The notes under the pieces: model-generated | Told to the model about the DNA's origin: nothing | Seen by the model: the letters and a program-made list of their open reading frames with translations, nothing else | The model's database searches: none | Source of the DNA: an uncultured Lentisphaerota bacterium | GTDB taxonomy: Bacteria > Verrucomicrobiota > Kiritimatiellia > RFP12 > UBA1067 | Direction: 5' to 3' | Length of the DNA: 34,843 bases | Assembly: GCA_900321575.1 (NCBI GenBank) | Contig: ONWT01000088.1 | Coordinates: 1 to 34,843, forward strand | Translations under genes and position numbers: made by a program | Shown: positions 6,566 through 27,655 of the stretch, piece after piece | Position numbering within the stretch: position 1 is the stretch's first letter | Layout of the letters: each line of letters begins with the position of its first letter

Positions 6566-6569
6566 CCCC

Positions 6570-6599
6570 TTGCGTCAAAGGGGAGAAGTGTGGTATAAT
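6570..6599 (+). promoter_or_regulatory. extended -10 promoter of the DUF3800 gene
   Basis: TTGCGT (6570-6575), 18-nt spacer, TG (6591-6592), TATAAT (6594-6599). Confidence 0.55.
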
Positions 6600-6654
6600 A
6601 CACTCGACAAAACCGAGAGGCGGAGTCAATCGGCTGGCGGAGAAGCCTCCGCTG

Positions 6655-7395
6655 ATGGCGTGGGAGACCACGCCATTACTTCTATACCGAAGGTTTATCA
6701 TTGTGAGCGGCGCTAAGGAAATCAGTGTGTTTGTAGATGAATCTGGCAGTTACGATCTTAATGCCAGTTCATCTAGGTTTTATATTGTATGCATGGTCTT
6801 TCACGACCAGTCGGACTCAATCGCTGAAGAGATTGATCGCCTTAACGTATTTTTGCGAAATAAGAATCTGCCTGAAGACCATCCCATCCATGCTGGGCCC
6901 CTTATACGAATGGAAGAGCCGTATAGGCATATGCGCCGAAGTGAGCGAAGAGCGATATTCTCGGCATTGTTGGCGTTTCTGCGCCGCTCGCGCATAACAT
7001 ATAAGTGCTTTAGCATCGATAAGAGATATATCGATTCGGCACCGGCATTTCACGATTCATTGCTACAGTGCCTGATTTCGCATCTAGTTTCCCGGAAGGA
7101 TGAGTTCAACAGTTATAGCCGGATCAAGATATATTATGACAATGGGCAGGCTGCGGTGACATCTATATTGCGCGAGGCGTTTGCAATCTACGCATCCAAG
7201 TGCGAGTTTGTCAGTAACGTTACTTCGTCTAAATATAAATTGTTTCAGGTGGCCGACATGATTTGTGCGATAGAGCTTGCAAGGCTTAAATTGTTGCATA
7301 TTGGCCATATATCAGACTCTGAAAAAGACTTCTTTATGGGTATTGGAAATTTTAGAAAGAACTATCTCAAGCCTATATTGAGAAAAGAGGCGTAA
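6655..7395 (+). CDS. DUF3800 domain-containing protein
   Basis: N-terminal ISVFVDESGS and C-terminal LFQVADMICAIE match the DUF3800 pattern (xDESG ... Q-x-aD). The TTG start at 6505 in the ORF track runs through the terminator and promoter, so it is rejected. The true start is ATG 6655 or GTG 6703 (GAAGG lies about 10 nt upstream of the latter). Confidence 0.65.
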   Translation: MAWETTPLLLYRRFIIVSGAKEISVFVDESGSYDLNASSSRFYIVCMVFHDQSDSIAEEIDRLNVFLRNKNLPEDHPIHAGPLIRMEEPYRHMRRSERRAIFSALLAFLRRSRITYKCFSIDKRYIDSAPAFHDSLLQCLISHLVSRKDEFNSYSRIKIYYDNGQAAVTSILREAFAIYASKCEFVSNVTSSKYKLFQVADMICAIELARLKLLHIGHISDSEKDFFMGIGNFRKNYLKPILRKEA

Positions 7396-7490
7396 TCGCT
7401 CTCCCGTTAGACGCAGAGCCGCAGAGATGTAAAGAATTTGACAGATTTTCGGCGAAAGATGGGGCTTAAAAAATTATTTGCGATACCCCC

Positions 7491-7520
7491 TTGCGCAGGC
7501 GCGGCGATTTTTGATATAAT
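7491..7520 (+). promoter_or_regulatory. extended -10 promoter of the ribosomal alpha operon
   Basis: TTGCGC (7491-7496), 18-nt spacer, TG (7512-7513), TATAAT (7515-7520). Confidence 0.6.
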
Positions 7521-7559
7521 ACGCGTTCATTCGACCACTCAAAAGAGTAAATAACAACA

Positions 7560-7673
7560 ATGAAAGTACGTAGTTCCGTTCGTCGCATATGCGAGAACTG
7601 CCGCATCATACGCCGCAAGGGTGTGGTGCGCGTGATCTGTACAAACCCGCGCCACAAACAGCGCCAGGGTTAA
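7560..7673 (+). CDS. rpmJ: 50S ribosomal protein L36
   Basis: Absent from the ORF track because it is under 60 aa. Translation [37 protein letters not shown] has the typical L36 C-x2-C...C...H zinc-ribbon pattern and the expected position before rpsM. Confidence 0.93.
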
Positions 7674-7694
7674 CAACAACGAGGTAAAACAACT

Positions 7695-8075
7695 ATGCCA
7701 AGAATGATGGGTGTGGATATTCCGGGCAAGAAGCATATTCGCTTCGCGCTTCGCTATATTCACGGTATCGGGCCGAAACGCGCTGATGACGTTTTGGCGG
7801 CTTGCAATGTCGACCCCATGAAGAAGGCCGACGACGTCACGCAGGATGAAATTCATGCGATCACGACGTACATTCAGGACCATTTCCGCGTCGAGGGCGA
7901 CCTCCGTCGCGAGGTTAGCCAGAACATCCGCCGTCTGATCCAGATCGGGTCTTATCGCGGTCTCCGTCACAAGAAGGGGCTTCCCGTGCGCGGCCAGCGT
8001 ACGAAGACGAACGCGCGTACCCGCAAGGGCGGCAAGCGTGTTTCGATCGCGATGCCCAAGCAGGCCGGTCGCTGA
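7695..8075 (+). CDS. rpsM: 30S ribosomal protein S13
   Basis: MPRMMGVDIPGKKHIRFALRYIHGIGPKRA...GSYRGLRHKKGLPVRGQRTKTNARTRKG. GAGGT Shine-Dalgarno. Confidence 0.97.
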   Translation: MPRMMGVDIPGKKHIRFALRYIHGIGPKRADDVLAACNVDPMKKADDVTQDEIHAITTYIQDHFRVEGDLRREVSQNIRRLIQIGSYRGLRHKKGLPVRGQRTKTNARTRKGGKRVSIAMPKQAGR

Positions 8076-15063: not shown

Positions 15064-15593
15064 AAACGCTTTACATAGAACGCTCGACCGGCGAGAGCCG
15101 TTCCGGCGATTGGATCAAGAAACTGGATATGTCCGAGCGGCCGGAGCGCATAGTCGTCGGCATCGGGCCGGGTTCGTTCGCCGGCATTCGTGCGGCGCTC
15201 GCGTTTGCGCAAGGATTCGCATTGGGAGCGGGGTGCGAGGTTCTCGGGTTGCCGTCTTCGTGCGCGTTGGCCGAAGCGTCGCGCAAAATCGCGGTTGTCG
15301 GCGACGCCAGGAGAGGCAAGTTCTGGGTGGCGCTCTATGACGGCTACGCCCAGATCGGCGATGTGTTCCAGGTCGATGAAGCCGGGTTGCCAGGCGCGAT
15401 CGGCGAGGACTTCGCGGTAGTGACGCCTGACGCCGCCCGCATAGACGGATTGCTGCGGAAGACATTCGGCGGCCGTTACGAAGGCGGGCGCGTTCCGTCA
15501 GAAGAGGGGCTGCGCGCGTTCGCCGAGGCCAATCCTTCAGTGCTCAGGTCCGAACCGCTGCCGATATATCTCAACCCAGCGGTACGGGATTGA
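15060..15593 (+). CDS. tsaB: tRNA t6A biosynthesis protein TsaB-like (short form)
   Basis: ATGA overlap with the upstream gene. LYIERST...IVVGIGPGSFAGIRAALAFAQGFALG is the TsaB/YeaZ signature. At 177 aa it is shorter than the usual protein. Confidence 0.65.
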   Translation: MKTLYIERSTGESRSGDWIKKLDMSERPERIVVGIGPGSFAGIRAALAFAQGFALGAGCEVLGLPSSCALAEASRKIAVVGDARRGKFWVALYDGYAQIGDVFQVDEAGLPGAIGEDFAVVTPDAARIDGLLRKTFGGRYEGGRVPSEEGLRAFAEANPSVLRSEPLPIYLNPAVRD

Positions 15594-15613
15594 TGCACAG
15601 AATGCAAATAATT

Positions 15614-15622
15614 TGATATAAT
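15614..15622 (+). promoter_or_regulatory. extended -10 element upstream of exbB
   Basis: TGATATAAT (TG 15614-15615, TATAAT 15617-15622), followed by AGGAG (15641-15645) and the ATG at 15650. Confidence 0.55.
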
Positions 15623-15649
15623 ATCACCTAAACCAATCTAAGGAGACAT

Positions 15650-16162
15650 ATGATCGATATTACGTTCGGACAAGCGTGGGAATATGGCGGGCCGCTTATG
15701 TGGGTGCTGGCCGGATTTTCCGTTTTCGGCCTTGCTGTCGCGCTTTATCTTTGGATCGTCCAGGCGCGCTGGGTCTTTCTTCCGGCTGCGCTGAAGCGCC
15801 TTCACGCCGCGAAGGATTGGGTCGCTGAAGGCGCAAGAATCGCGTCCCGCGCCAATGCTGCGGTGGACTGGCTCGCGGACATCGCCGCGATCGCCCCGCT
15901 TGTCGGTCTTCTCGGCACCGTGCTCGGCATGTTCAAGGCGTTCGGCGGAATCGCCAGCGACGTGTCCGCAGGCGCAAAGCCGGTCGTCCTCGCGCAAGGG
16001 GTTTCGCAGGCCATAGTGACCACCATATTCGGTCTTGTCGTCGCCATTCCCGCGCTCGTGATGTACGCGTTCTTCCGTCGCCGTACCGCCAAGCGCATAG
16101 CAGAGCTAGAAGAGGCTGCGGAAGATCTTGTCAGCGGAGCCAACGATGAAGTTCAAAACTGA
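15650..16162 (+). CDS. exbB: MotA/TolQ/ExbB proton-channel family protein (short, 3 TM)
   Basis: APLVGLLGTVLGMFKAFGGI and GVSQAIVTTIFGLVVAIPALVMYAFFRRR are the family signature. Confidence 0.88.
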   Translation: MIDITFGQAWEYGGPLMWVLAGFSVFGLAVALYLWIVQARWVFLPAALKRLHAAKDWVAEGARIASRANAAVDWLADIAAIAPLVGLLGTVLGMFKAFGGIASDVSAGAKPVVLAQGVSQAIVTTIFGLVVAIPALVMYAFFRRRTAKRIAELEEAAEDLVSGANDEVQN

Positions 16163-16565
16163 TTCCAAATCGCGGGCTCCGGCTCTCGCGCTGACATCCA
16201 TGCTGGATGTCATCTTCCTGCTTTTGTGCTTTTTTGTCACGGTAAGCGTGTTCTCGCAGTGGGAGAGCGAGATTTCCATAAAGCTCCCCGCGGCGCGCAC
16301 TTCGGAACAGCTTGAGCGGCTGCCCGGCGAGATAATCGTCAACCTCTCGAAAGAAGGCACGGTGAAGGTCAACGGTTCGATACTGCCGTTGCCGGAGCTC
16401 CGCGACCGTCTTGCGAAGATTTCCAAGTTCTATCCTGGTCAGCCCGTGATAATCCGGGCCGATCGCGAAGTACGCTACGAATCGCTCGTGTCGGTGATCG
16501 ATACCTGCCGCGAAGCGGATGTGTGGAACTTCTCTCTGGCCACGGAAGGGGATTCTGCAAAGTGA
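16146..16565 (+). CDS. exbD: biopolymer transport protein ExbD/TolR
   Basis: LTSMLDVIFLLLCFFV TM helix, then IKLPAA...VNLSKEGTVKVNG...VIIRADREVRYESLVSVIDTCREA. GGAG lies 6 nt upstream of ATG 16146. Confidence 0.88.
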   Translation: MKFKTDSKSRAPALALTSMLDVIFLLLCFFVTVSVFSQWESEISIKLPAARTSEQLERLPGEIIVNLSKEGTVKVNGSILPLPELRDRLAKISKFYPGQPVIIRADREVRYESLVSVIDTCREADVWNFSLATEGDSAK

Positions 16566-18475
16566 TGTTTCTTCCGACACTTCTCATCGCCGCGATAACT
16601 GTGGCTCCGGCCGACAGGCTCGCCATGGCCGACAGGCTTTTCAACCGGGGCGCGTATGCCGATGCGCGTGCCGAATACGACGCCATAAGAGGCGAGGGGG
16701 TCTTGCCTTACGACGATTTGCTGTACCGTCTGGCGGAATGCGATCGCGCACTCGGCAAAAACGCCGAAGCGCGGGCCGCTTACGGCGAGCTGCTCGAGAA
16801 GTTTCCGGCTTCGCGGCATGCCGACCGTTCGCGTCTCATGCGCGCGCTTGCCGGCACCGACGACGAAAAGCGCAGCGAACTCAAGGTGTTGGATTCCGAC
16901 AGGGTCGCCGCCGACATAAGATCGGCCGCCCTTTACCACCTAGGCGTGGTGGACGGCGACGTAAAAGCGTTCGAGAAGTGCGTCTCGGTTTCGCCGAAGG
17001 GCAAATACGCCCCGTACGCCAAACTGCGCAGGGCGTCTTTGCTGGCGTCTTCGAAAGACGCGGTCGAGCGGCGTCAGGCCGTAAGGCTTCTGCTCGAAAT
17101 AGCCTTTGGCGACAACGGCGAATTTTCGGAGGAGGCGCTTTATCTGGCCGCCACGACGAGCTACGGCGAGAAACGCTACAACGAGGCCGCGACGCTTTTC
17201 AGGCGCTATATGAAGGGTTATTCCCGCGGCAAGCACATTCGCGACGCCGTCTCCATATGCGCGTGGTGCGAATATCTGAACGGCAAGTACGCCGACACGA
17301 TTTCCCTTTGCGGCGACGGCACGACGGAAGATACGGCGTTTCTTTTGGCGGCCGCGACCCATGCGACAGGGGATATGCCCAAAGCAAAGTCGCTGTTTGA
17401 ATCTTATCTAGAGAAATATCCCCAAGGGCGCTATCGCAAAGATGCCGAACTGCCTATAGCCAGAATCGGGTTTGCGGCCGCCGAAAAGGATGGCGATGCC
17501 GCCAAGGCGCTCGAGTGCGCGCTTCGCGCGGCGGCGATTTCGAATTTGGCGTCCGACCGTTTGCGCGTGGCGTGGGCCTACGAGAAGAGCGGCTCCGTCG
17601 AGGATGCGGAGCGCGAATATATTGCAGTCGCGACGGATTTCCCGTCCACTCCCGAAGCGGCCGAGGCGATGTTCCGAAAGGCTCTTGCCGATTTGCGCGA
17701 AGAAAGGTGGGCCGCGGCCGAGCTTTCGCTCGCCGAGGCGCTTGGCGGCAAGCTCGACCCTCGGCGTCAGGCGGAGGCGCTCTACTGGCGCGGCATTGCG
17801 GCAATCCGCATGGGCCACGAAGAAGAGGGTGTCGTCCATTTGCGCGAAGCGCTCGTGAAAGGTCTTACGCTCGACCAGTCGCGCGAAGCGCGCCTTCTGA
17901 TCGCCGATTGCGACTACAATTCCGGCAGAACACAGGAGGCGAAGAACGCCTACTCGAATCTTGTGAAGGAAGGCGCTGCGGCGAGAATGAGTGCCGCCAA
18001 GACGCTTGCCGTCGGCAAGATGCTCTTTCCAGGCGAAGAAGCCGAGATATGCGCAAGAGCGCTTATAAAGAGCGACGCGGCGGAGTGGCGGCAGGCTGGG
18101 TATGCGCTTCAAGGCGCGGTGGAAGAGGAGGCGAAGTCGTTCTCGGCGGCGATCGATTCGTACAGGAAGTGCATGGCCGAGAATTGCAAGACCGAAGACC
18201 TGCCCCGCGTGGCAGCCCGGCTTGGAGCTCTTGAGGCTGCGAACGGAGAGTGGGACGCGGCCGAGGTCACTCTTTCCCGTGCGGTGGAGCTGAATGTCGA
18301 CGATGTGGAGGCTCGGGCTGAAAGCTATCTGCACCTTGCGGAGGTGTCTGCGGCCAAGGGCAATTCGAAGAATGCGCGGGCCTATGCGACTGTCGTCGCG
18401 ACTCTTTTCGAGGGTACGCCGTTCCGCGCCAAGGCGGAAGAGATATTGAAGTCTCATCCGGAGGTGGCCGAGTGA
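16565..18475 (+). CDS. secreted/periplasmic TPR-repeat protein
   Basis: ATG overlaps the exbD stop. N-terminus MFLPTLLIAAITVAPA is signal-like. Repeated TPR-like A/L/Y/R helical units run through 636 aa. Confidence 0.7.
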   Translation: MFLPTLLIAAITVAPADRLAMADRLFNRGAYADARAEYDAIRGEGVLPYDDLLYRLAECDRALGKNAEARAAYGELLEKFPASRHADRSRLMRALAGTDDEKRSELKVLDSDRVAADIRSAALYHLGVVDGDVKAFEKCVSVSPKGKYAPYAKLRRASLLASSKDAVERRQAVRLLLEIAFGDNGEFSEEALYLAATTSYGEKRYNEAATLFRRYMKGYSRGKHIRDAVSICAWCEYLNGKYADTISLCGDGTTEDTAFLLAAATHATGDMPKAKSLFESYLEKYPQGRYRKDAELPIARIGFAAAEKDGDAAKALECALRAAAISNLASDRLRVAWAYEKSGSVEDAEREYIAVATDFPSTPEAAEAMFRKALADLREERWAAAELSLAEALGGKLDPRRQAEALYWRGIAAIRMGHEEEGVVHLREALVKGLTLDQSREARLLIADCDYNSGRTQEAKNAYSNLVKEGAAARMSAAKTLAVGKMLFPGEEAEICARALIKSDAAEWRQAGYALQGAVEEEAKSFSAAIDSYRKCMAENCKTEDLPRVAARLGALEAANGEWDAAEVTLSRAVELNVDDVEARAESYLHLAEVSAAKGNSKNARAYATVVATLFEGTPFRAKAEEILKSHPEVAE

Positions 18476-20118
18476 GAGAAGGTGTCAAGAGAGATCTTCT
18501 TGTCGCAGCGCTTGCCGTTTCTGCGGCGGTGCATGTCGGCATAATGATGTGGGCTGAGCCGAAAGTCATGACCCATGTTGTGCAGGGGGTCAACCGCGCT
18601 TTGAGGCGGGGCCCGATGGCTGTGAAGCGTGCCGAGGCGCCGGAAGAGCCCGTCAAATTCGAAATTGTGCAGGACATGCCGGCCCAAAAGGAGGCTCCCG
18701 AGGTCGATGAGACCATTGTCGCCGCCCCCGCCCCCGATATGCTGCTGCCGACGCCTGAGGTCGCGTTGCCGATGCCTACGGCGATAGAGGCGCCGAAAAT
18801 CCTGGAGAGATTGCGCCCTGAGGCCGATGCGCCGGTAATCCCGATCGCCAAAGCGGTAGAGTCCGCCGTCAGAGAAGATGCCGTCGTCGCGATGCCTTTC
18901 GACATATATGCGCCGCTTACGGAGATATCCGCAGTCGGCGGAATAGTCTCGAGCGCGCCCGCGACCCCTATCGAAATCGAGGCTCCGGCGATAGAAGATC
19001 CGGGAATGGAATTTGTCGATGAATCTGCTGGCGAAGTGGAGCCGCCCGAGAAAATGGTCGCCGAAGATGAAGAGTCGAAAGACGGCGAGAGCGGGTTTAC
19101 TCCGCTGGAAGAGGTAATGGGCGAGGTCGATGAAGCCGTCGTCGAGCGCGAGAAGGAGGCTGTGCGCGAGCTCATAGATTCCGACGATGCGGTTGAGATG
19201 CACGAGGCCGTGGATGTCGCGGTGGCATGGTGCGAAGGCGGCGACGGCTATACGTATTTCAAGGCCACTGTCTCGCCGAAGCACGATCTTAAGTCCGTGC
19301 CAAAGGACGTGGTGATTCTCATTGATGCCTCCGGTTCAATCGGCGACGACCGCCTTTCGAGTTGCCGCAAGGCGGCGCGCGCCATAATGCGCAGTTGCAT
19401 GAACACAGGCGACCGCTTCAATCTGGTGGCTTTTCGCGACCGTTTTTCGTATGCGTTCCGCACATGGCGCGAATGCGACGCCTCGAGCTTCGCCGATGGC
19501 GACAAGTGGCTGGGCAAGCTTGTCGCGCACGGGCGTACGGATGTCTTCGCGACGATTTCGTCCGTTCTGACGCTTCCGCGAGACCCTAAGCGGCCCTTGG
19601 TCGCGCTCGTAGTCACAGATGGCGACGCGAATGCCGGCGTCAGGGATACGGCCGACATTCTGTCCAAGTTCTCGAAACTTAACGATGGGCTGGTTTCCGT
19701 ATATATGTATGGCGTGAAGGCCAGCGCGAATCGGGAGCTGATTGACGTGCTTACGCGCGGCAATCGCGGCGAAGGATTTATATTCGAAGGGTGGCGGTGG
19801 AAGGCCGGTTCGGAGATCGAGCGCCTTTCCGAGAAGTTTCGTGATCCGCTGATTACCGATTTGCGCGTGGTCTTCCCGTCAAGTTGCCCAGCCGAGGCGT
19901 ATCCGTCGCTTCTCAGAAACGTCTATCGCGGAAACGGCGTTTCGTTCGTGGGGCGCGTGCAGGGGCGCCCGGCCGACATAGCGTTTTCGCTGAAGGGTTT
20001 GGCCGGCGAGACTGCGTATGAGGGTTTCTTCCGCTTGCCGCTCGATTCAGCCCGGAACGACCAGTCGATACCCGGGATGTGGGCGCAAGAGCGTGAAATC
20101 GATATGAAGATACGCTAA
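18472..20118 (+). CDS. TonB-like N-terminal anchor + Pro/Glu-rich spacer + von Willebrand factor A (VWA_3-type) domain protein
   Basis: GTGA overlap with the TPR gene. TM helix LLVAALAVSAAVHVGIMMW carries S-x3-H as in the TonB SHLS motif. The spacer is EAPEEPVKFEIVQDMPAQKEAPEVDETIVAAPAPDMLLPTPEVALPMP. The vWA MIDAS motif is VVILIDASGSIGD with DRFNLVAFRDRF and VTDGDAN. Confidence 0.75.
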   Translation: MREGVKRDLLVAALAVSAAVHVGIMMWAEPKVMTHVVQGVNRALRRGPMAVKRAEAPEEPVKFEIVQDMPAQKEAPEVDETIVAAPAPDMLLPTPEVALPMPTAIEAPKILERLRPEADAPVIPIAKAVESAVREDAVVAMPFDIYAPLTEISAVGGIVSSAPATPIEIEAPAIEDPGMEFVDESAGEVEPPEKMVAEDEESKDGESGFTPLEEVMGEVDEAVVEREKEAVRELIDSDDAVEMHEAVDVAVAWCEGGDGYTYFKATVSPKHDLKSVPKDVVILIDASGSIGDDRLSSCRKAARAIMRSCMNTGDRFNLVAFRDRFSYAFRTWRECDASSFADGDKWLGKLVAHGRTDVFATISSVLTLPRDPKRPLVALVVTDGDANAGVRDTADILSKFSKLNDGLVSVYMYGVKASANRELIDVLTRGNRGEGFIFEGWRWKAGSEIERLSEKFRDPLITDLRVVFPSSCPAEAYPSLLRNVYRGNGVSFVGRVQGRPADIAFSLKGLAGETAYEGFFRLPLDSARNDQSIPGMWAQEREIDMKIR

Positions 20119-20140
20119 CTTCTCAAACGGGCGTCCGCTT

Positions 20141-20920
20141 ATGAAAATAGCTGTCATTGGAAGGGGTCTTATCGGCGGCTCGCTTGCAAAGGCGGCTCTT
20201 CGCGCAGGACATGAGGCCGTTGCGTTCGACAAAGGGGACGACTTCAAAGTGGAAGAGGCCGATATCGTGTTTGTCGCGGTGCCTCCCTCTGCCGTAGTCG
20301 GGGTTGTCGATTCGATAGCGTGCCGTCTGCGCGAAGGAGCGATTGTCGTCGATATGACCGGCGTAAAGGGGTTCGTCTACGAGGCGCTGAAGAAATATGT
20401 GTTCTCAAAGCGGTTCACTTTTGTCGGCGGGCATCCCATGGCCGGCAAGGAAGTGTCCGGTTGGGCCAATTCGTCGCCTGATCTTTTTGACGGCGCATCG
20501 ATGATACTCGTGCCGTATCCTTCATGCGGACGCCTTGTGCTCGACAGGCTGGAGAAGCTTTTTCGCGAATTGGGCTTTGCCAGGACGGTGTTTACCGATC
20601 CGGAGCACCATGACGAGATGATCGCCTTTACGAGCCAGTTGTGCCATCTTGTGTCTTCGGCATATGTCCGCGATGAATTGTCGTCAGGTCATAGCGGCTA
20701 TTCGGCCGGAAGTTTTCGCGATATGGTCCGGGTCGGCGCGCCCGATCCCGATATATGGACCGAACTGTTCATGCTCAATCGCGATGCGCTCAAACCGGTT
20801 CTGGCGCGTTACATCGGGCGGCTTGAAGATTTTCTGGAGGCGCTCGAGGCGGGCGATTCCGCGCGGCTTCACCGCGCTCTCGAACAAGGCGTAATCGCAA
20901 AGGGAAAAATATGCTCATAA
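20141..20920 (+). CDS. tyrA: prephenate dehydrogenase
   Basis: MKIAVIGRGLIGGS Rossmann motif and the GGHPMAGKEVSGW signature. Confidence 0.85.
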   Translation: MKIAVIGRGLIGGSLAKAALRAGHEAVAFDKGDDFKVEEADIVFVAVPPSAVVGVVDSIACRLREGAIVVDMTGVKGFVYEALKKYVFSKRFTFVGGHPMAGKEVSGWANSSPDLFDGASMILVPYPSCGRLVLDRLEKLFRELGFARTVFTDPEHHDEMIAFTSQLCHLVSSAYVRDELSSGHSGYSAGSFRDMVRVGAPDPDIWTELFMLNRDALKPVLARYIGRLEDFLEALEAGDSARLHRALEQGVIAKGKICS

Positions 20921-23787
20921 AAATAGCACTGACTCTCGTTTTTCTGCTCGTAATGGTCGCAGTCGGCGTTTACAGCCGCCGCCATTCGTGCTCTGTTGAC
21001 GGCTTTGTGCTCGGCGGACGCAATGTCGGACCGTGGCTGACGGCCTTTGCCTACGGGACGAGTTATTTTTCCGCCGTTGTCTTTATCGGCTATGCGGGAC
21101 AGTTCGGCTGGAAGTATGGCCTTTCCGCGACATGGATAGGCGTCGGCAATGCCATAATCGGTTCTCTTCTGGCCTGGCTTGTTTTGGGCCGCCGGACGAT
21201 GCAAATGACGCGAAAGCTACAAAGCCGGACAATGCCCGATTTCTTCGGCTCGCGATTCGACAGCGAAGCGCTGCGCGTGGCGGCCTCTGTAATCGCGTTC
21301 GTATTCCTGATTCCCTACACGGCTGGCGTGTACAAAGGCATTTCGACGCTCTTCGAGACCAGTATGCACATACGCTACGAGTATTGCGTAGTGCTCATGG
21401 CGGTGCTTACGGCGCTTTATGTCATACTTGGCGGATACAAGGCCACGGCCATAAACGATTTCATACAGGGCATTGTCATGCTGTTTGGAATAACAGCCGT
21501 GATAGTGACCGTTCTTGGCTTGAAAGGCGGCCTTGTCGAAGCCGTGCACAACCTTGCGCAGATTCGCTCGGATGTAAACCCTGCCGAGTGTGGAGGTTTC
21601 GCGTCGGTGTTTGGGCCTGATCCGCGTGGACTGGTCGGAGTCGTCATACTGACTTCTCTGGGCACCTGGGGTCTGCCTCAGATGGTCAGCAAGTTCTACT
21701 CCATAACCGACGAGAAGGCCATCTACCGCGGAACGATCATATCTACGGTCTTTGCGTTCGCGGTTGCGGGCGGGTGCTATTTTCTCGGCGGTTTCGGAAG
21801 GCTTTTCCCGACGCCTGCGACGTTGGCCAACGGAAAGCTCGATTTCGACTCGATCGTGCCGTCCATGCTGGTGACTCTGCCCGATGTGCTCATTGCGCTT
21901 GTCGTGCTGCTCGTGCTTTCGGCGTCGATGTCGACTCTTGCGTCGCTAGTGCTGACATCCAGTTCGACTCTTACGCTCGATATAATCTATCGCGACAAGA
22001 AATCTTCCTCCGGCGAAGTCGAAGCGGGGCAGATAGACGATTCGGTCGTCGAGAAGATCGAGCGCCGCAAAGTCGTTGTCATGCGCGTGCTGATACTCTT
22101 CTTTATCGCGCTTTCGCTGATGATAGCCCTGAACCCGCCAACATTCATCGCTCAGCTTATGGGTATTTCCTGGGGCGCGCTTGCCGGCGCCTTCCTGGCG
22201 CCGTTTACGCTCGGGTTGTATTGGCGAGGCGTTACCCGCGCTTCGGTCTGGGCTTGCTTCATATGGGGAGTGGGGCTTACGGTCGTCAATATGCTTGCGG
22301 GCAATCCGGTAAATCCGATCGATTGCGGAGCGCTCGCGATGCTGGGCGGTTTTGTTGTCGTGCCTGTCGTGAGCCTGATCAGCCCTCGGTTGCCGGATGG
22401 CGTGGTGAAAGCCGTCTTTGCGGCGACAGCCGTGTTCGCCATGATCCCGCTTTCGGCGATGGCAGATGAGGCCGTTTTGCAAGAGCCCAGAAAAGTCGAT
22501 TTCAACATGGGGGCGGACGTGCGCATCCGCCAAGAGATAATGGGCAATGTGCCCGGCACCCCCGGAGGCGGAGTTCTCTATCCCAGAGTCCGCAGGTCGT
22601 ACTTGAACCAGATGCGCTTCCGTCCGCGCGTCTGGGGCGAGTTGAAGGCTTCCGAAAACTGGCGCCTTTATTTGCGCCTGGCGGACGAGTTTCGCTGGAC
22701 CGTCAAGCCGAGCAACCACAATGCGGCGTTTCCGGACGAACTCGTGCTCGACAATCTCTTCATCGAGGGTGTGGATCTTTTTGACGGATTCGTCGATCTG
22801 AAGATCGGCCGTCAGGATATCTACAATATGTACGGCCTGAACCATGTTTTTGTGGACGGCACGCCTGGCGACGGTTCGCGAACGGTCTATTCCGATGTCG
22901 TCCGCTTCGCGCTCAAGTTCGACGAAGACCAAAGACTTGACGTCTTCGGACTGTACAACTTCGACAAAAACCCTGCGAGATGGGGAACCCGCCGTTCGAA
23001 AAAAGCGCTTGCGGGGCTAGGCGGCGGTGCGGAGCGCGAGATGGACGACTGGGGCTGGGGCGCGGTATGGTCCGGCAAGGCCCTCGACTGGTTGCCCTAT
23101 CAGGTGTTCGCCATGCAGAAGCTGACCAGATCGTTTCACCGTCGCGGCGAAAAGCGTCCTGGCACGCGGCGTGAATTGCTTGGCGTGAAGCTGATGCCGC
23201 AGCTCACGGACGAGATATCCCTTCAACTTGAAGCTATTGGGCAGGTCGGCCGCAACGGTGAAGGTTCGTGGCTCGGCGGGTGGAGCACATATTCGGGGAT
23301 AAACTGGAAATCTTCTGCTGAGAGCGGTCTCAAGCCCTTTGCCGCCGTAGGGTTCCATACCATGAGCGGCGACAAACATGCCGCCAATGAAGATGGCGGA
23401 CACCACGCGTGGGATCCTATGTGGGCGCGCGGAGTGAACGATTCCGAACTGATGCTCTACGGTACGCATTACGGCGTCGCATGGTGGAGCAATATGATGT
23501 ATCTGAAGTTTACTCTTGGCGTGGATATCGCGCCCAAGCACCGCGTCGCCTATGCGACAGGCCCGATGTTCGCCGCGACGCGCGACGGTCTCGGCGGTGG
23601 CAACGGCTCGTTCAAGGGCTATCAGAACCAATTGCGGTACGACTTCCCGCTTTGCACGCTGAACGCCGAGGGACGGCCTCTCGACATCTTCGGCCATGTT
23701 GTCGGCGAGTTGTTCAATCCGGGGGGCTACTTCGAGACGGACAAGCCCGGTTGGTTCGTCCGTTGGGAAGTCGACTTCAAGTTTTGA
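20911..23787 (+). CDS. sodium:solute symporter (SSS family, about 13 TM) continuous in-frame with an outer-membrane beta-barrel module
   Basis: 958-aa ORF with no stop. Residues 1 to about 497 form a normal-length SSS transporter (GGRNVGPWLTAFAYGTSYFSAVVFIGYAG...). Residues from about 498 start with a signal-peptide-like segment and end in ...WEVDFKF. Confidence 0.75.
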   Translation: MLIKIALTLVFLLVMVAVGVYSRRHSCSVDGFVLGGRNVGPWLTAFAYGTSYFSAVVFIGYAGQFGWKYGLSATWIGVGNAIIGSLLAWLVLGRRTMQMTRKLQSRTMPDFFGSRFDSEALRVAASVIAFVFLIPYTAGVYKGISTLFETSMHIRYEYCVVLMAVLTALYVILGGYKATAINDFIQGIVMLFGITAVIVTVLGLKGGLVEAVHNLAQIRSDVNPAECGGFASVFGPDPRGLVGVVILTSLGTWGLPQMVSKFYSITDEKAIYRGTIISTVFAFAVAGGCYFLGGFGRLFPTPATLANGKLDFDSIVPSMLVTLPDVLIALVVLLVLSASMSTLASLVLTSSSTLTLDIIYRDKKSSSGEVEAGQIDDSVVEKIERRKVVVMRVLILFFIALSLMIALNPPTFIAQLMGISWGALAGAFLAPFTLGLYWRGVTRASVWACFIWGVGLTVVNMLAGNPVNPIDCGALAMLGGFVVVPVVSLISPRLPDGVVKAVFAATAVFAMIPLSAMADEAVLQEPRKVDFNMGADVRIRQEIMGNVPGTPGGGVLYPRVRRSYLNQMRFRPRVWGELKASENWRLYLRLADEFRWTVKPSNHNAAFPDELVLDNLFIEGVDLFDGFVDLKIGRQDIYNMYGLNHVFVDGTPGDGSRTVYSDVVRFALKFDEDQRLDVFGLYNFDKNPARWGTRRSKKALAGLGGGAEREMDDWGWGAVWSGKALDWLPYQVFAMQKLTRSFHRRGEKRPGTRRELLGVKLMPQLTDEISLQLEAIGQVGRNGEGSWLGGWSTYSGINWKSSAESGLKPFAAVGFHTMSGDKHAANEDGGHHAWDPMWARGVNDSELMLYGTHYGVAWWSNMMYLKFTLGVDIAPKHRVAYATGPMFAATRDGLGGGNGSFKGYQNQLRYDFPLCTLNAEGRPLDIFGHVVGELFNPGGYFETDKPGWFVRWEVDFKF
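22405..23787 (+). CDS. candidate independent outer-membrane beta-barrel protein (alginate-export/porin-like) from an internal GTG start
   Basis: GTG at 22402 or 22405 is followed by KAVFAATAVFAMIPLSAMA|DEA, a classic n-h-c signal with an AxA site. Alternating amphipathic strands follow (DVRIRQE, MRFRPRVWGEL, WRLYLRLADEFRW), ending in a C-terminal Phe. The GTGA at 22405-22408 resembles the gene junctions used elsewhere in this window. Confidence 0.5.
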   Translation: MKAVFAATAVFAMIPLSAMADEAVLQEPRKVDFNMGADVRIRQEIMGNVPGTPGGGVLYPRVRRSYLNQMRFRPRVWGELKASENWRLYLRLADEFRWTVKPSNHNAAFPDELVLDNLFIEGVDLFDGFVDLKIGRQDIYNMYGLNHVFVDGTPGDGSRTVYSDVVRFALKFDEDQRLDVFGLYNFDKNPARWGTRRSKKALAGLGGGAEREMDDWGWGAVWSGKALDWLPYQVFAMQKLTRSFHRRGEKRPGTRRELLGVKLMPQLTDEISLQLEAIGQVGRNGEGSWLGGWSTYSGINWKSSAESGLKPFAAVGFHTMSGDKHAANEDGGHHAWDPMWARGVNDSELMLYGTHYGVAWWSNMMYLKFTLGVDIAPKHRVAYATGPMFAATRDGLGGGNGSFKGYQNQLRYDFPLCTLNAEGRPLDIFGHVVGELFNPGGYFETDKPGWFVRWEVDFKF

Positions 23788-25664
23788 TGAAATCTCCGGC
23801 CGATAAAGACCCGACACGCTTCTCGTGCGTGAAAATGCGGGCCTCCCTGAAAGGCGCCCACATATCCGGTGCCGAGCGGATCGTTTGCCCCGGCAACGTC
23901 CAGAAAACGGTCGCGTCGCTCGTCGGTCGTGCCATGACGCACGAAAAGGGGATCCCCGACTTTATCAACGTCAAGGTCGAGTCGTGCGCTTGCGCGCGCC
24001 ATATCGTCGCTCTCGAAGTCCGCACCGAGGCGGTGGATTCTCCTGAAGAAGGCTGGCGCCGGGTCGATAAGCTTCTGCGCGAGGCTGGCTTCTCGCGTGC
24101 GGAAGAAATCAGAGACCTCTTCAAAGAGACGTATTCCATGCGAGGCGCGATGCTGCTTGATGCCGATACGCTTGAGCGGCTGGAACCGAATCGCGAGCGC
24201 GGCGTCAGGGCCACTTGCATGGATGCGGCCGACTCTCTCGCAGGCGCGGCCGGAGTGAAGGACCACTATGCCGAAGCGATCGTCCTTGCGACGAAGGTCC
24301 AGAGTGCGCCAGGTATCGTAGGCGAGATATGCATGTCGGATGATCCCGACTATGTTACCGGCTATGTCGCAACGAAGGCTTTGGGCTATAGGCGCATAAC
24401 GGTCTTGAAAGAAAAAGGCGACCCAAGCGGAGGGCGGATCTTTCTCTACCGCGGCCGCCGCGAGGATGTCGCCGAGACGATACGCTATCTTGAGAGCGAG
24501 CCCGTGCTGGTCGATGGCGTACCTATGCTCGAGCGTCAAATCGACGAACGCAGAATGGCGTCGCTGGCCGCAGATCTGGATGTGGCAAGGCAGAGCGGAT
24601 TGTGGCGCAACATCCGCATGGCGCCCAAAGACGCCGTGAATCTCTCGTCTAACGACTACCTTGCCCTTTCGAATGACGAACGCGTCAGAAAAGCCGCCGC
24701 CGAAGCCGCCCTGCAATATGGGGCCGGGACTGGCGCTTCCAGACTGGTGACTGGTACGCAACCGCCGCACGAAAGGCTCGAACGCCACCTGGCAGAGTTC
24801 AAAGGGGTGGATGCGGCGATAGTGTTTTCGGCCGGATATATGGCGAATCTTGGTGCGATAACCGCGATTGCAGCGAGGGGAGACGTAGTCGTCTCCGACG
24901 AACTCAACCACGCCTCGATAATCGACGCCTGCCGCATGAGCGGGGCTGAAATAGTCGTGTATCGCCATCTTGACATGGCCGACCTTGAGCGCAAACTGGC
25001 CCGTTGCCGCGGATACAGGCGCCGCCTTGTAGTCTCGGACGGGGTGTTTTCGATGGATGGTGATATTCTGCCGCTAGGCGATTTTCTTCATGTCTGCCGC
25101 AAATATGATGCTTTTTCCATGGTGGACGAGGCTCACGCCCTCGGCGTTGTCGGCGCGACCGGCCATGGCCTCGTCGAGCATTTCGGGTGTGGCCGCCCCG
25201 ATATAATGATGGGCACGCTCTCAAAGGCGCTCGGTTCGCAGGGCGGCTATGTGGCCGGCTCGGCGCAACTGGTCGAGTATCTGCGCCAAAAATCGCGGCC
25301 CTTCATATTCAACACTGCGCCTTGCGCCGCGGCCATGGCTGGGGCTGATGCCGCGCTGAAAATCCTCGAAGCCGAGCCCGATCGCGTGGCCAGACTCAAG
25401 AGAAACGTGCGAGTTCTTGTCGAAGCGCTCTCGGAGCGCGGCGTAAAGGTGGCGACGGCTTCCGCGATAGTCCCCGTGATAGTCGGCGACGAACGGCGCG
25501 CAGTGGCGATATCCCAAGCGCTAGAGACGGAAGGGTTTATTGTCTCCGCGATACGCTACCCAACGGTCGCGAAGGGGGCTGCGAGGCTGCGTTTCGCGGT
25601 GTCGAGTGCTCATTCGGAGGAGTCTCTGATGAAAGCCGCCTCGGCAATCTCGGCCAAATTATGA
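23787..25664 (+). CDS. bioWF: fused 6-carboxyhexanoate-CoA ligase (BioW) / 8-amino-7-oxononanoate synthase (BioF)
   Basis: N-terminal part: VKMRASLKGAHISGAER, GVRATCMD, ICMSDDPDYVTGYVATKALGYRRITVLKEKG..GGRIFL, all resembling B. subtilis BioW. C-terminal part is a PLP alpha-oxoamine synthase (SNDYLALS, DELNHASIID, SDGVFSMDGD, VDEAHALG, GTLSKALG). The start overlaps the upstream stop (TGATG). Confidence 0.85.
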   Translation: MKSPADKDPTRFSCVKMRASLKGAHISGAERIVCPGNVQKTVASLVGRAMTHEKGIPDFINVKVESCACARHIVALEVRTEAVDSPEEGWRRVDKLLREAGFSRAEEIRDLFKETYSMRGAMLLDADTLERLEPNRERGVRATCMDAADSLAGAAGVKDHYAEAIVLATKVQSAPGIVGEICMSDDPDYVTGYVATKALGYRRITVLKEKGDPSGGRIFLYRGRREDVAETIRYLESEPVLVDGVPMLERQIDERRMASLAADLDVARQSGLWRNIRMAPKDAVNLSSNDYLALSNDERVRKAAAEAALQYGAGTGASRLVTGTQPPHERLERHLAEFKGVDAAIVFSAGYMANLGAITAIAARGDVVVSDELNHASIIDACRMSGAEIVVYRHLDMADLERKLARCRGYRRRLVVSDGVFSMDGDILPLGDFLHVCRKYDAFSMVDEAHALGVVGATGHGLVEHFGCGRPDIMMGTLSKALGSQGGYVAGSAQLVEYLRQKSRPFIFNTAPCAAAMAGADAALKILEAEPDRVARLKRNVRVLVEALSERGVKVATASAIVPVIVGDERRAVAISQALETEGFIVSAIRYPTVAKGAARLRFAVSSAHSEESLMKAASAISAKL

Positions 25665-25670: not shown

Positions 25671-25699
25671 TATCCTTTATCGCAACAGGAGGATTGGTT

Positions 25700-27655
25700 A
25701 TGAAGCTACTGGGAGAGAAAATCTTTGCGAAGGATGCAGACGGGCGGTTGATAAGTCGTATAGGAACCATGTTCCTTAGAACCCCCGGCCTCGTCACTAC
25801 TCGTGCGGTGCACGCCATGCAGCGCATGCTTTGGCTCGACGACTTGAACGCCACGCGTGCGGAGGCCGGTTTGCCGGCGCTCACTCCAGAAGAAGAGGAG
25901 GCGGAGTTGACGGAGTCGGTCGACCTGATTTTCACCGATGATGCCGTTCTGATACGTCCCGACCCGGAGAGAATGGATCTCGCGCTTCGTGCGGACGAGG
26001 TTCTGCGCACGATGATGTCCAAGCTCAAGGTGAGATTTCTCAACACCAATTCCGCGAAAGTGCGCAATGCGCTCTGCGAACGCGGCGAAAACTGGCGTAT
26101 GGCCCGCCATCCCATATCCGAGGATGATATGGCCACGGTCATAGAAAACTCGCGCGTGGCGATTGAGTGTCTGCCGATCTATTACTATAACAGGGCCACA
26201 GGGTCGCGCTTTATAACGGCGGGCGGCTATTTGCAGGTAAGCACCCTGCCCGATGAGGAATATCGCCGTCAGATCAAAGAAGTCGTCGACGGCCTCAACA
26301 AGCGCAACAGGCTCGGCTATCAAGAAGTCATGATCTTTCCGCCGTCCACGCCGATAGAGGTGTCGAAAGCGCTGAAGTCCATACCGATGACCGAGCTGAA
26401 CGACACCGAGCTCCGCCGCGCAGTAGACAGAATCGCCACCGATTGGCGAATGTCGCTGCCGCCCGAATTGCGCGAAGAGTCCGTCTCGAACTACGAATGG
26501 CGCAATGCGATGTGCCAAGCGGTGACCCACAGGCTAAACGAGACCGTCGCCGACGAGCGTGAGCTCGTGAGCGGCATCGCCGCCGAGTTCTACCGCCAGA
26601 TAGAGTGGTTGCCGGGTGCCAGAATCATAGACGGCGAGCTCGTGTTCGATGATCTTTACGATGAAGCCGCCCGAACCCAAGACCCCGAACTGCACGCTCT
26701 TTGCGACAGTCGTGCGAAGGCGCTTATCTTCAATCTGACCCGCGTGTTCGGCGCGGTGGACTACATCAACATCGGCCGTATCGCCCGTTCGCTCTCGCGC
26801 AAGCAGAATCCGAGCGGCCATCGCGGCAGCATATACATAATACAATATCGCGATACAGGCACGAAGAATTCGAAGATGATGATACTGCGCTTCCAGAAAT
26901 GGGGCGTCAAGGAGCATCTCGACGAGGGTAAGGACCTTATGCGCGCGATGTTGGAGTCTGACGAATATACCGACTACATCCTCGACCGCCGTCTGATGTG
27001 CAGACAGCTCGGCATGAATCTGCCCAAGAGAATCGGCTTCGGCCACTTCACCGAAAAGTACCACAGCCACAACCAGTACAACGGCATAACCGTGCGCACG
27101 GTCTGCCTCGTGCGTCCCTATGTGCGTGGAACCGCTTCGGACAAGATACCCCTGAATAAATACAAGAACCCGGTCTTCGCCGCTAAGTTTGCGAAGCTGA
27201 TGGGCGCCGCCGCCGCCGTGGACCTTATTGTCGGGCGCAGGTCTTCCGCGACGATGGAGATACTTTTCGACCACAGCTACGAGATCGTCCTCTGCACCGA
27301 CGAGGGCCTGCCCGAATCCGTGAGGATAACCGACCACGCGGGCAGCTTCGTCGATTACGAGCGCGAACTTGCCGAAGGAGTCGCCGATTACGCCGAGGCG
27401 GTGCGCTCGCGCCGCAATTTCGTCACCGACTACCAGACATTCGCCGCCGAATACGTAAATGCGTTTGCCGACAAGATAGCCGAAGTGCAGAATTCCTACA
27501 GAACGCGGCGCAAAGCGTTCGACGGCCTGTTCGCCGACCGGCCCTTCGACACGAACGGCTCGGGCGCATACCGCTGGGCGCGTGCGCTCGCCCGCCTCGA
27601 TCGCGCAGACGTGGCAGAGCTCAAGACCAAGCTGATAGAAGCGGTAAAATGCTGA
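25700..27655 (+). CDS. large cytoplasmic protein of unknown function; the C-terminal ~280 aa has AceK-kinase-like motifs
   Basis: 651 aa, with no TM helix or signal peptide. GHRGSIYIIQY...KMMILRFQKWG, IPLNKY, GAAAAVDLIVG, ITDHAGSF and LFADRP...YRWARAL occur in the same order and with similar spacing as the motifs I recall in the E. coli AceK kinase domain. This is a by-eye comparison only. Confidence 0.6.
   Translation: MKLLGEKIFAKDADGRLISRIGTMFLRTPGLVTTRAVHAMQRMLWLDDLNATRAEAGLPALTPEEEEAELTESVDLIFTDDAVLIRPDPERMDLALRADEVLRTMMSKLKVRFLNTNSAKVRNALCERGENWRMARHPISEDDMATVIENSRVAIECLPIYYYNRATGSRFITAGGYLQVSTLPDEEYRRQIKEVVDGLNKRNRLGYQEVMIFPPSTPIEVSKALKSIPMTELNDTELRRAVDRIATDWRMSLPPELREESVSNYEWRNAMCQAVTHRLNETVADERELVSGIAAEFYRQIEWLPGARIIDGELVFDDLYDEAARTQDPELHALCDSRAKALIFNLTRVFGAVDYINIGRIARSLSRKQNPSGHRGSIYIIQYRDTGTKNSKMMILRFQKWGVKEHLDEGKDLMRAMLESDEYTDYILDRRLMCRQLGMNLPKRIGFGHFTEKYHSHNQYNGITVRTVCLVRPYVRGTASDKIPLNKYKNPVFAAKFAKLMGAAAAVDLIVGRRSSATMEILFDHSYEIVLCTDEGLPESVRITDHAGSFVDYERELAEGVADYAEAVRSRRNFVTDYQTFAAEYVNAFADKIAEVQNSYRTRRKAFDGLFADRPFDTNGSGAYRWARALARLDRADVAELKTKLIEAVKC

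Follow-up and report, generated by a model that had tools for sequence, protein, structure and literature searches.

A candidate ExbB/ExbD-driven transducer with a vWA head, encoded together with a TPR protein, in a gut Kiritimatiellae bacterium

To our knowledge, of the routes by which inner-membrane energy reaches the outer envelope in diderm bacteria, just two, TonB and TolA, are well understood. They share one small C-terminal domain. Membrane-anchored vWA proteins are encoded with a TPR protein in the Bat operon; we know of no ExbB/ExbD linkage and of no conserved S-x3-H anchor among Bat proteins. Pairs of membrane-anchored vWA proteins and TPR proteins recur in bacteria (PMC5700661). Recently, "vWA force transducers" encoded next to tolQR-like and TPR genes have been proposed computationally in PVC bacteria (Williams-Jones et al., Mol Biol Evol 2025, msaf138, PMC12204202). 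The seed of that proposal was two proteins from Tichowtungia aerotolerans (Kiritimatiellota), of 476 and 474 aa. An earlier note on the DNA described here knew of no characterised system with such a design; this holds for experiments, but the design itself had already been proposed in msaf138.

The window is the whole stretch of DNA that was analysed (34,843 nt). An ORF check finds a four-gene operon at 15650-20118 (+) in this gut Kiritimatiellae bacterium, in the order exbB, exbD, TPR gene, vWA gene (Table 1). The junctions were read from the sequence. The exbB ATG is preceded by AAGGAG. The exbD ATG at 16146 lies inside the end of exbB, giving a 17-nt overlap with the exbB stop (16160-16162), and has GGAG 6 nt on its 5' side. 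The exbD/TPR-gene junction is TGATG at 16563-16567; the TPR-gene/vWA-gene junction is GTGA at 18472-18475, with GGAGG 7 nt upstream. These start-stop overlaps imply translational coupling of all four genes. The vWA gene ends at TAA (20116-20118), the next ATG is at 20141, and no terminator was found between the operon and the next gene. All the ORFs and junctions are thus present as the earlier note described them. Its "one strong promoter" has fared less well. A single sigma-70-like site lies in the 56-bp intergenic gap, and 15300-20400 holds no other promoter-like site; however, one site in 5.1 kb compares with 1.4 expected from shuffles, so it is a promoter candidate only.

Table 1. Coordinates of the operon features in the window
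Feature	Position	Strand	Basis or detail
Sigma-70-like promoter candidate	15594..15622	+	TGCACA, 17-nt spacer, TATAAT; TG before -10
exbB/tolQ-like stator subunit, 170 aa, short form, three TM segments	15650..16162	+	Pfam MotA_ExbB
exbD/tolR-like stator subunit, 139 aa	16146..16565	+	Pfam ExbD
Periplasmic-type TPR solenoid protein, 636 aa	16565..18475	+	Pfam TPR families
Putative vWA-headed TonB/TolA-like transducer, 548 aa, GTG start overlapping TPR stop	18472..20118	+	Pfam, AF2
Single N-terminal TM helix, residues 3-27	18478..18552	+	AF2 helix; S17 at 18520-18522, H21 at 18532-18534
Disordered Pro/Glu/Ala-rich linker, residues 28-216, 189 aa	18553..19119	+	AF2, composition
Globular head, residues 217-548	19120..20115	+	Pfam VWA, VWA_3, VWA_2; PDB profile; Foldseek

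The arrangement exceeds chance. ExbB-ExbD-TPR-vWA is the gene order in 48 of the 69 informative Kiritimatiellae loci (70%); all three of the distant loci looked up, at ~30% identity, show it as well, each with one ExbD. The neighbourhood comparison suggested by the earlier note thus finds the vWA gene with exbBD in most close and in all three distant loci. Adjacency of the TPR and vWA genes is tighter than that of the motor and vWA genes, being kept in 64/69 loci. No exbB or exbD lies within ~8 kb of the TPR-vWA pair in 16/69 loci, and in a further 5/69 the vWA gene stands alone; nearby exbBD is missing from 21/69 in all. The vWA gene can therefore occur with no dedicated motor in cis. The vWA family is large (186 clusters at 50% identity, E<=1e-30). 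Among the loci returned there is one operon locus per genome, and the flanking genes are housekeeping genes which differ between loci. Matches to defence systems were absent, and the loci compared have no transporter, CAZyme or substrate-binding gene in common beside the operon. Among the window ORFs scanned with Pfam there is no TBDT gene, and the operon and the large ORFs contain neither tolB nor pal.

Going by its sequence, the motor is of genuine ExbB/ExbD type with the key residues present. ExbB matches Pfam MotA_ExbB (PF01618) at 6.6e-25 and 87.8 bits (cutoff 22.9), and the PDB ExbB structure 5sv0 at 1.9e-12; ExbD matches PF02472 at 5.1e-27 and 94.9 bits (cutoff 25.4). ExbB T90 and T122, the aligned counterparts of E. 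coli T148 and T181, show no variation in 52 loci, and neither do the ExbD segment TSMLDVIFL and ExbD D21, which aligns with the essential D25 of E. coli ExbD (6tyi). ExbB has no equivalent of Glu176 in TM3; Gln occupies the aligned position and is at least 90% conserved in the 52 loci. No second exbD-like gene is present in the operon or the window. In NCBIfam, both subunits score marginally higher against TolQ/TolR models, and the ExbB-model scores nearly equal the TolQ scores. The equivalog cutoffs are missed widely, both for TolQ (TIGR02796, 67.1 bits against 221) and for TolR (TIGR02801, 46.6 bits against 127.3). Zorya and other MotAB-type defence systems were also considered and rejected: for the four proteins, PADLOC returned a single match, of ExbB to ZorA2 at 14 bits.

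The 548-aa protein has three parts: an anchor, a linker and a head. In the TM helix, S17 and H21 are invariant among 43 homologues, and S-x3-H is carried within a hydrophobic segment near the N-terminus by 242 of 246 full-length members of the family, at identities as low as ~27%. Of the SHLS motif only the S-x3-H half can be seen; A28 and V32 stand where the spacing would call for Leu and Ser. Profile searches relate the N-terminus to neither TonB nor TolA. The link to TonB is therefore drawn from S-x3-H, from how well it is conserved and from the neighbouring genes. K+R counts in 242 sequences are 2.16 for the N-flank of the helix against 2.43 for the C-flank, so the positive-inside rule is ambiguous and gives no periplasmic assignment for the vWA head. 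The linker has no Pfam match and is rich in P (13.2%), E (15.3%) and A (14.8%); its AF2 pLDDT is mostly <50. Conserved linker motifs follow the helix: P30-x-V32-M33, G47-P-M-x-V and D68..A71-x-K73-x-A75-P76. The second of these is a candidate motor box. The P-M-x-V-D-R consensus also occurs in distant relatives. For the msaf138 transducers, the motor box is a beta-strand predicted to follow the TM helix; the monomer AF2 model of the window protein predicts no strand at its candidate box.

The AF2 model of the head comprises a helix (221-235), a beta hairpin (247-269), the vWA domain (~279-437), a beta-sandwich (459-523) and a C-terminal helix (533-547), with the vWA plus beta-sandwich module spanning 247-523. 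Pfam VWA is matched at 6.8e-11 over residues 279-440. The MIDAS is intact (D285-A-S287-G-S289 at 19324-19338, plus T356 and D383), and these five metal-site residues are also invariant in the 43 homologues. The best PDB profile match is to ITIH1 (6fpy, 3.9e-9); Foldseek finds ITIH1 (4e-19) and ArnB (8s05 and 4fx5). TonB_C (PF03544) and TolA_III were not found in Pfam or NCBIfam, with the whole protein or fragments, even at E<=10, and neither PDB profile search nor Foldseek gave a TonB_C-like fold. Most of what the earlier note said of this protein is borne out: a single TM helix with S-x3-H, a Pro/Glu/Ala-rich spacer (which it put at roughly 150 aa), a MIDAS-bearing vWA domain with a beta-rich tail, and no TonB C-terminal domain. 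Its TonB-type N-terminus stands as regards motif, conservation and context but not as profile homology.

The TPR protein matches Pfam TPR_6, TPR_19 and YfiO among many TPR families, and a BamD-like NCBIfam model. It scores 100.2 bits against tol_pal_ybgF (TIGR02795, cutoff 90.1), a sum over five stretches for a 119-position model, and 28 bits against the CpoB model NF008068 (cutoff 383). Its AF2 model (pLDDT 90.8) has 35 helices in ~17 hairpins; Foldseek returns generic TPR scaffolds only. Some homologues carry the JGI name 'TolA-binding protein'. The start is ambiguous (ATG 16565 or GTG 16523). Compared in 55 loci, the N-termini are signal-peptide-like, with a short hydrophobic segment and then a conserved (A/L)P(A/S)↓DR; DRLAMADRLFNRG is conserved past the predicted cleavage site. 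The protein had been called "secreted", with which the N-terminus agrees, but the start is ambiguous and there is no lipobox in the N-terminus.

At a probability of roughly 60%, the operon encodes a trans-envelope force-transduction module on the TonB/TolA plan with a different head. The sequences support the suggestion of the earlier note that a PMF-driven stator may energise a vWA head in place of the TonB C-terminal domain. An ExbB5-ExbD2-type inner-membrane stator would convert proton flow into movement by way of ExbD Asp21 and a ring of ExbB Thr90/Thr122. The 548-aa protein would dock outside the ExbB pentamer by its single TM helix, through Ser17 and His21, and the short conserved segment right after the helix probably touches the periplasmic domain of ExbD. 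The disordered tether of ~190 residues would span the periplasm. In the ITIH-like vWA/beta-sandwich head, the MIDAS metal site may grip an acidic residue of a partner, which motor work would then pull. As direct partner or adaptor, the likeliest candidate is the periplasmic TPR solenoid, since the linkage of its gene to the vWA gene is closer than that of the motor genes. The domain anatomy, the conserved key residues and the synteny are observed; docking mode, N-in/C-out topology, force transmission and target are all things we infer. AF3 complex models accompany the same inference for the analogous PVC vWA family (PMC12204202). Several features count against this reading. The ~37-kDa head is far bulkier than the TonB/TolA C-terminal domain and would have to cross the peptidoglycan layer. 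The N-terminus has no TonB/TolA profile match, the topology is ambiguous, ExbB has Gln at the Glu176 position, and some loci have no motor genes nearby.

The role of such a module could be a housekeeping, Tol-type envelope function, for example outer-membrane tethering or constriction. We hold this at somewhat less than even odds; nutrient import and gliding are less likely. Counted in its favour are the single locus per genome among loci returned, the variable housekeeping flanks, the lack of defence matches, the CpoB/YbgF and BamD matches, the 'TolA-binding protein' names and the slight TolQ/TolR preference, along with the non-motile coccoid form of cultured Kiritimatiellota (PMC10880615) and the presence of tolB-pal in Kiritimatiella, where no TolA can be annotated (SI of PMC12204202). 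A Tol-like role would, however, lean on sub-threshold TolQ/TolR scores and repeat-driven CpoB scores, and is weakly indicated by them. A bolder version is doubtful. It would have a distinct, widespread lineage of PMF-driven transducers, in which a metal-dependent MIDAS 'grip' replaces beta-strand augmentation in applying force at the outer envelope and the TPR protein is an obligate adaptor. The transducer would be a TolA stand-in in Kiritimatiellae, independent of the Tichowtungia type, with convergent recruitment of vWA domains to 5:2 motors. At least some members of the phylum lack TolA: Kiritimatiella glycovorans has tolB-pal and no annotatable TolA (SI of PMC12204202), and neither TolA nor TonB can be made out in Tichowtungia.

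Other explanations share parts of this evidence. An import energiser, in which the vWA head would act like TonB on an outer-membrane transporter or surface glycan-capture machine and power uptake, has the same architecture as the force-transduction reading and the near-equal ExbB-model and TolQ scores on its side. Kiritimatiellota are glycan degraders, some with TonB-dependent transporters near CAZyme genes (PMC10880615). It seems unlikely, as the varying flanks offer no conserved transporter, CAZyme or substrate-binding gene, the TonB-box-binding domain is missing, and the loci returned include one per genome, whereas TonBs for uptake frequently occur in several copies. A Ton or Tol system of the ordinary kind, the 548-aa protein being a true TonB/TolA orthologue whose C-terminal domain is divergent or cryptic, would account for the ExbB/ExbD context, the S-x3-H helix, the Pro-rich spacer and a TPR protein that reaches the cutoff of the CpoB (YbgF) model. 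The lack of any TonB_C/TolA_III signal in Pfam or NCBIfam, and the match of residues ~220-548 to vWA/ITIH/ArnB/integrin folds only (PDB profile, Foldseek), largely refute it; the AF2 model leaves no globular segment unassigned. We regard it as very improbable.

A static, Bat-like envelope scaffold of vWA and TPR proteins would receive no force; exbB and exbD would serve another client or be loosely linked. The tighter TPR-vWA adjacency (64/69 against 48/69 for the motor), the 21/69 loci without nearby exbBD and the ambiguous topology suit such a scaffold, and membrane-anchored vWA plus TPR pairs are a known bacterial theme. It offers no reason, however, for a Ser-x3-His kept in the TM helix of 242/246 relatives, for the four-gene order kept at ~30% identity in three distant loci, or for start-stop overlaps that imply translational coupling with exbD. 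There are also no BatA_N, MoxR or DUF58 matches in the proteins or the neighbourhood. The scaffold is improbable on balance. Finally, a gliding or adhesion motor with a CglB-like head acting in surface motility was suggested for the Tichowtungia proteins in 2025 (PMC12204202), and in Myxococcus the TolQR-like AglQRS motor is reported to have the vWA adhesin CglB as a working partner (PMC9946355). All cultured Kiritimatiellota, Tichowtungia included, are reported as non-motile cocci (table, PMC10880615), the head is anchored through its tether in the inner membrane and lacks a surface-export signal, and no Glt-like genes lie nearby. Such a motor is hardly credible here.

If the force-transduction reading is true, this conserved, core-genome system shows that the same motor and anchor can carry an integrin-like, metal-dependent head, so that the 5:2 motor and tether form a modular platform. 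An energised envelope process not yet recognised would be indicated for Kiritimatiellae, a group abundant in rumen and gut, and for other PVC bacteria. The large, sequence-distinct family would widen the msaf138 proposal and provides targets for mutation: S17, H21, D285/S287/S289 and ExbD D21.

The operon shares with E. coli TonB-ExbB-ExbD a stator with conserved Asp and Thr, a single-pass S-x3-H anchor, a Pro-rich spacer and arrangement in one operon. It differs in having no TonB_C domain or TonB-box logic; instead there is a head of ~330 residues with a metal-dependent MIDAS site. It adds a gene for a TPR partner, and its ExbB, of 170 aa, is short and has Gln in place of Glu176. With Tol-Pal it has in common a motor slightly better matched to TolQ/TolR models, an operon-encoded TPR protein with CpoB-type repeats, and a housekeeping, single-copy character. 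The TM motif presumably resembles that of TolA as well (IISAVLHV in TolA, AVSAAVHV here). Unlike Tol-Pal, it has no TolA domain III, misses the TolQ/TolR cutoffs and is accompanied by neither tolB nor pal among its own genes or the scanned window ORFs; the TPR protein, at 636 aa and ~17 hairpins, compares with ~260 aa for CpoB. BatA/BatB/BatC and Borrelia BB0172/BB0173 likewise pair a membrane-anchored MIDAS vWA genetically with a TPR protein, but the window operon has no MoxR ATPase/DUF58 neighbours and no match to the BatA N-terminal domain. ITIH1 (6fpy) and bacterial VIT-vWA proteins (TIGR03788) are the best sequence and fold matches, over residues ~250-541. They share with it the integrin-like MIDAS vWA packed on a beta-sandwich, at an identity of only 16-17%. 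The window protein gives no match to the VIT domain (PF08487), and is predicted to be motor-tethered whereas ITIH/VIT-vWA proteins are secreted or sortase-anchored.

The closest design is that of the msaf138 transducers, from the same phylum. Both have a TM helix with a Ser/His motor-binding motif, a disordered linker, a C-terminal domain of vWA fold, and tolQ/tolR-like motor genes and a TPR gene alongside. The window protein shows no detectable similarity to the Tichowtungia seeds beyond the TM helix (BLASTP E 0.08, N-terminus only; hhalign probability 0.9%), with a seed sequence retyped from the SI in which one or two residues may be wrong. Its MIDAS is an intact DxSxS, whereas the printed Tichowtungia sequences have DADK/DANK there. 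It also has a longer linker (~190 aa) and an extra ITIH-like beta-sandwich. The window operon has one transducer and one ExbD, and Tichowtungia has two transducers and two heterologous TolR-like genes; unlike in Tichowtungia, the TPR gene lies between the motor and transducer genes. By these comparisons, the window family is distinct in sequence from the single published example of a kind of design already proposed computationally.

The 548-aa vWA protein encoded by the last gene of the exbB-exbD-TPR-vWA operon is best read as a force transducer analogous to TonB or TolA. The operon has the catalytic residues of the motor, and its vWA protein has an invariant Ser/His anchor, a long disordered tether and a head with an intact MIDAS; the gene linkage is conserved. 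These features support the proposal, made earlier from the sequence, that a PMF-driven stator energises a vWA head.

The four ORFs lie in direct succession at 15650-20118 on the forward strand. The earlier note described them as coupled, and direct reading of the sequence confirms this observation and bears out the start-stop junctions claimed there. The next gene downstream encodes prephenate dehydrogenase and starts 22 nt past the operon end; there is no terminator-like hairpin between the two. A single strong promoter was also claimed. The 56-bp gap upstream of exbB does contain one sigma-70-like site (TGCACA-17-TATAAT, with TG), but 1.4 sites are expected from shuffled sequence; because shuffled sequence yields as many, the site is a candidate only.

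Junctions of the operon in the window and predicted segments of the vWA protein
Feature	Position	Strand	Basis or detail
exbB/exbD junction	exbD ATG 16146, 17 nt within exbB (TGA 16160-16162)	+	GGAG upstream
exbD/TPR junction	TPR ATG 16565, A common to exbD TGA (TGATG)	+	direct reading
TPR/vWA junction	vWA gene GTG 18472, over TPR stop (GTGA)	+	GGAGG 7 nt upstream
Operon end	TAA 20116-20118	+	direct reading
TM helix	residues 3-27		AF2 model
Low-confidence segment (linker)	residues 28-216		AF2 model
Helix	residues 221-235		AF2 model
Beta hairpin, vWA fold, beta-sandwich	through residue 523		AF2 model
Terminal helix	residues 533-547		AF2 model

The 170-aa ExbB and the 139-aa ExbD far exceed the cutoffs of their Pfam families, MotA_ExbB and ExbD, and both can be aligned to the solved E. 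coli proteins. The essential D25 of E. coli ExbD corresponds to D21 in the window, and T148 and T181 of E. coli ExbB correspond to T90 and T122; none of the three residues varies across 52 related loci. At about residue 118 of ExbB (15650-16162) there is a Gln, at least 90% conserved in the 52 loci, where E. coli ExbB has Glu176. By NCBIfam, the motor proteins are marginally closer to TolQ/TolR than to ExbB/ExbD, at scores far under every equivalog cutoff. The exbD of the operon is the only exbD-like gene in the window, and no further motor was found there. PADLOC returned nothing meaningful for a Zorya-like defence system, and that reading was rejected.

The AF2 model of the vWA protein rests on an alignment of 43 sequences. 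In this alignment S17 and H21 of the TM helix are invariant, as are the MIDAS residues D285, S287, S289, T356 and D383. Past the helix there are short conserved motifs (P30, V32, M33 and GPMxV at 47-51), and the linker is rich in Pro (13%), Glu (15%) and Ala (15%). An exhaustive family search gave 186 clusters at 50% identity (E<=1e-30). Among the 246 relatives of full length, the most distant of which are about 27% identical, S-x3-H is found within the N-terminal hydrophobic helix in 242 and DxSxS in 243. The head matches ITIH1 both by sequence profile (3.9e-9, PDB profile search) and by fold (4e-19, Foldseek); Foldseek ranks archaeal ArnB and a vWA protein from an actinobacterium next.

Neither a cryptic TonB_C domain nor a TonB N-terminal domain was detected by Pfam, NCBIfam, PDB profile search or Foldseek. 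The Pfam searches, at E<=10, covered the full-length protein as well as residues 1-60, 1-216 and 440-548. The claim that a vWA domain sits where the TonB C-terminal domain would be expected therefore holds, fragments included. As to the claim of a TonB-like N-terminus, residues 1-60 match no TonB profile, but profiles cannot settle kinship with TonB, since a helix of 25 residues is too short for any of them. Conservation argues strongly for a TonB-like N-terminus: the S-x3-H motif is nearly universal among the relatives.

The TPR protein matches many TPR families, BamD/YfiO and a CpoB/YbgF model (Pfam, NCBIfam); its TIGR02795 score of 100 bits, where the cutoff is 90, is a sum over five stretches. 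Some homologues are named 'TolA-binding protein' by JGI. AF2 confidently predicts a continuous solenoid of 35 helices (pLDDT 90.8). The fold is uninformative as to function, since the Foldseek matches are all generic TPR scaffolds (Ctr9, Ski3, IFT-A, APC); one bacterial match was chain 9hmf_K from the flagellar periplasmic scaffold of Campylobacter. Across 55 loci, the N-terminus has a hydrophobic stretch of 12-13 residues followed by (A/L)-P-(A/S)|D-R-L-A-M-A-D-R-L-F; it resembles a signal peptide, and none of the 55 has a lipobox. Translation could start at the ATG at 16565 or at a GTG at 16523. Seeming conservation upstream of the ATG arises because the conserved C-terminus of exbD overlaps there.

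The 80 related genomic loci all derive from MAGs of gut or rumen, which are labelled Kiritimatiellae, 'Verrucomicrobia' or 'Lentisphaerae', and the homologues carry only Kiritimatiellae protein names. Gene order could be counted in 69 related loci whose upstream sequence is long enough. The complete ExbB-ExbD-TPR-vWA order is found in 48/69, TPR-vWA with no ExbB/ExbD inside about 8 kb in 16, and the vWA gene alone in 5. TPR and vWA genes are thus adjacent in 64/69 loci, a tighter link than that between motor and vWA. The classes track subclades, which points to a few rearrangements and not to many independent events, and S-x3-H is kept in every class with a readable N-terminus. Three distant loci (L081, L083 and L085), with vWA proteins only about 30% identical to that of the window, keep the complete four-gene order, again with one ExbD. 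A profile search with distant relatives, narrowed by its word prefilter, gave 11 proteins. Synteny of the vWA gene with exbB/exbD, as the earlier note expected, thus extends to other genomes. In L081, an FRG-domain gene (4906-5730, +) lies between the TPR and vWA genes of the otherwise kept cassette. In L014, from another Kiritimatiellae genome, a stand-alone vWA gene adjoins a homologue (5903-7903, -; 62% identity) of the ORF at 25694-27655 (+) of the window, which encodes a 653-aa protein with no Pfam match.

The operon is flanked by housekeeping genes, including those for a TsaB-like protein, an SBP_bac_5 solute-binding protein, a Na/Pi cotransporter, DnaB and RNase HII. Upstream, a 1713-aa ORF (443-5584, +) matches no Pfam family at E<=0.001. 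Further on, 5746-7395 (+) encodes an AAA_33/zeta-toxin-like kinase and a DUF3800 protein at a G+C content of 0.48-0.49, against about 0.58 in the rest; this stretch may be a horizontally acquired islet. Downstream, a single 958-aa ORF (20911-23787, +) encodes an SSF sodium:solute symporter (Pfam, residues 32-444) which runs on with no stop for about 500 more residues. The extension begins like a signal peptide (…AVFAMIPLSAMADEAV…) and ends …WEVDFKF; it looks like an outer-membrane beta-barrel, and 22330-23787 has no Pfam match even at E<=10. The fusion may be genuine, joining an inner-membrane transporter to an OMP-like domain, or it may stem from an error of frame or assembly. Two other apparent fusions are present: BioW (6-carboxyhexanoate-CoA ligase) with a BioF-like class I/II aminotransferase (23409-25664, +), and a glutamine amidotransferase with a His_biosynth domain (HisH-HisF-like; 31178-32551, +). 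The true start of the former is probably later than 23409, because the 958-aa ORF ends only after that listed start.

If the vWA protein is a force transducer, it would lie N-in/C-out, dock on ExbB through H21/S17, possibly with a motor box near residues 47-52, and use a metal-mediated bond to pull on a partner. The positive-inside rule is unusable for topology, because mean K+R counts beside the TM helix are ambiguous (2.16 on one side, 2.43 on the other). The main non-motor rival is a static scaffold like that of Bat systems. It is disfavoured: Ser and His are invariant in the TM helix, and MoxR, DUF58 and BatA_N are absent by Pfam from the operon proteins and their neighbours in the window.

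For the physiological role of the transducer, a Tol-like envelope function is favoured, with a probability of about 35-40%. The locus has a core-genome character, with one locus per genome among the loci returned and variable housekeeping neighbours, and the TPR partner is of the CpoB/BamD type. All cultured members of the phylum are non-motile and coccoid (PMC10880615), and Kiritimatiella is reported to have tolB-pal but no annotatable TolA (PMC12204202); both points also favour a Tol-like role. The main alternative is that the system energises uptake; a role in gliding seems unlikely.

A search of full texts turned up a single paper that bears directly on the system (Mol Biol Evol 2025;42(6):msaf138; PMC12204202). 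It describes vWA force transducers seeded from Tichowtungia aerotolerans, a member of the Kiritimatiellota in which neither TolA nor TonB can be discerned, and in its AF3 models the conserved His of the transducers sits on the motor at the TonB/TolA site. The concept was thus proposed computationally in 2025; the design is not categorically new, and the architecture will not surprise a specialist who knows that work. The vWA-motor system is widespread, mechanistically suggestive and open to clear tests. Strict membership of the Tichowtungia family was rejected. With the first of the two transducers printed in the SI (476 and 474 aa), BLASTP aligned the TM region alone (E 0.08) and hhalign against the 43-sequence profile gave a probability of 0.9%, with no similarity past the TM helix; no Tichowtungia-type gene was detected by tblastn, either in the window or among 86 loci. 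The printed sequences have DADK/DANK at the would-be MIDAS, whereas the MIDAS of the window protein is intact. The window protein belongs to a different lineage with a different operon layout. Unlike the Tichowtungia system, the window operon has one transducer and one ExbD, with the TPR gene in the middle, and its vWA protein has an extra beta-sandwich.
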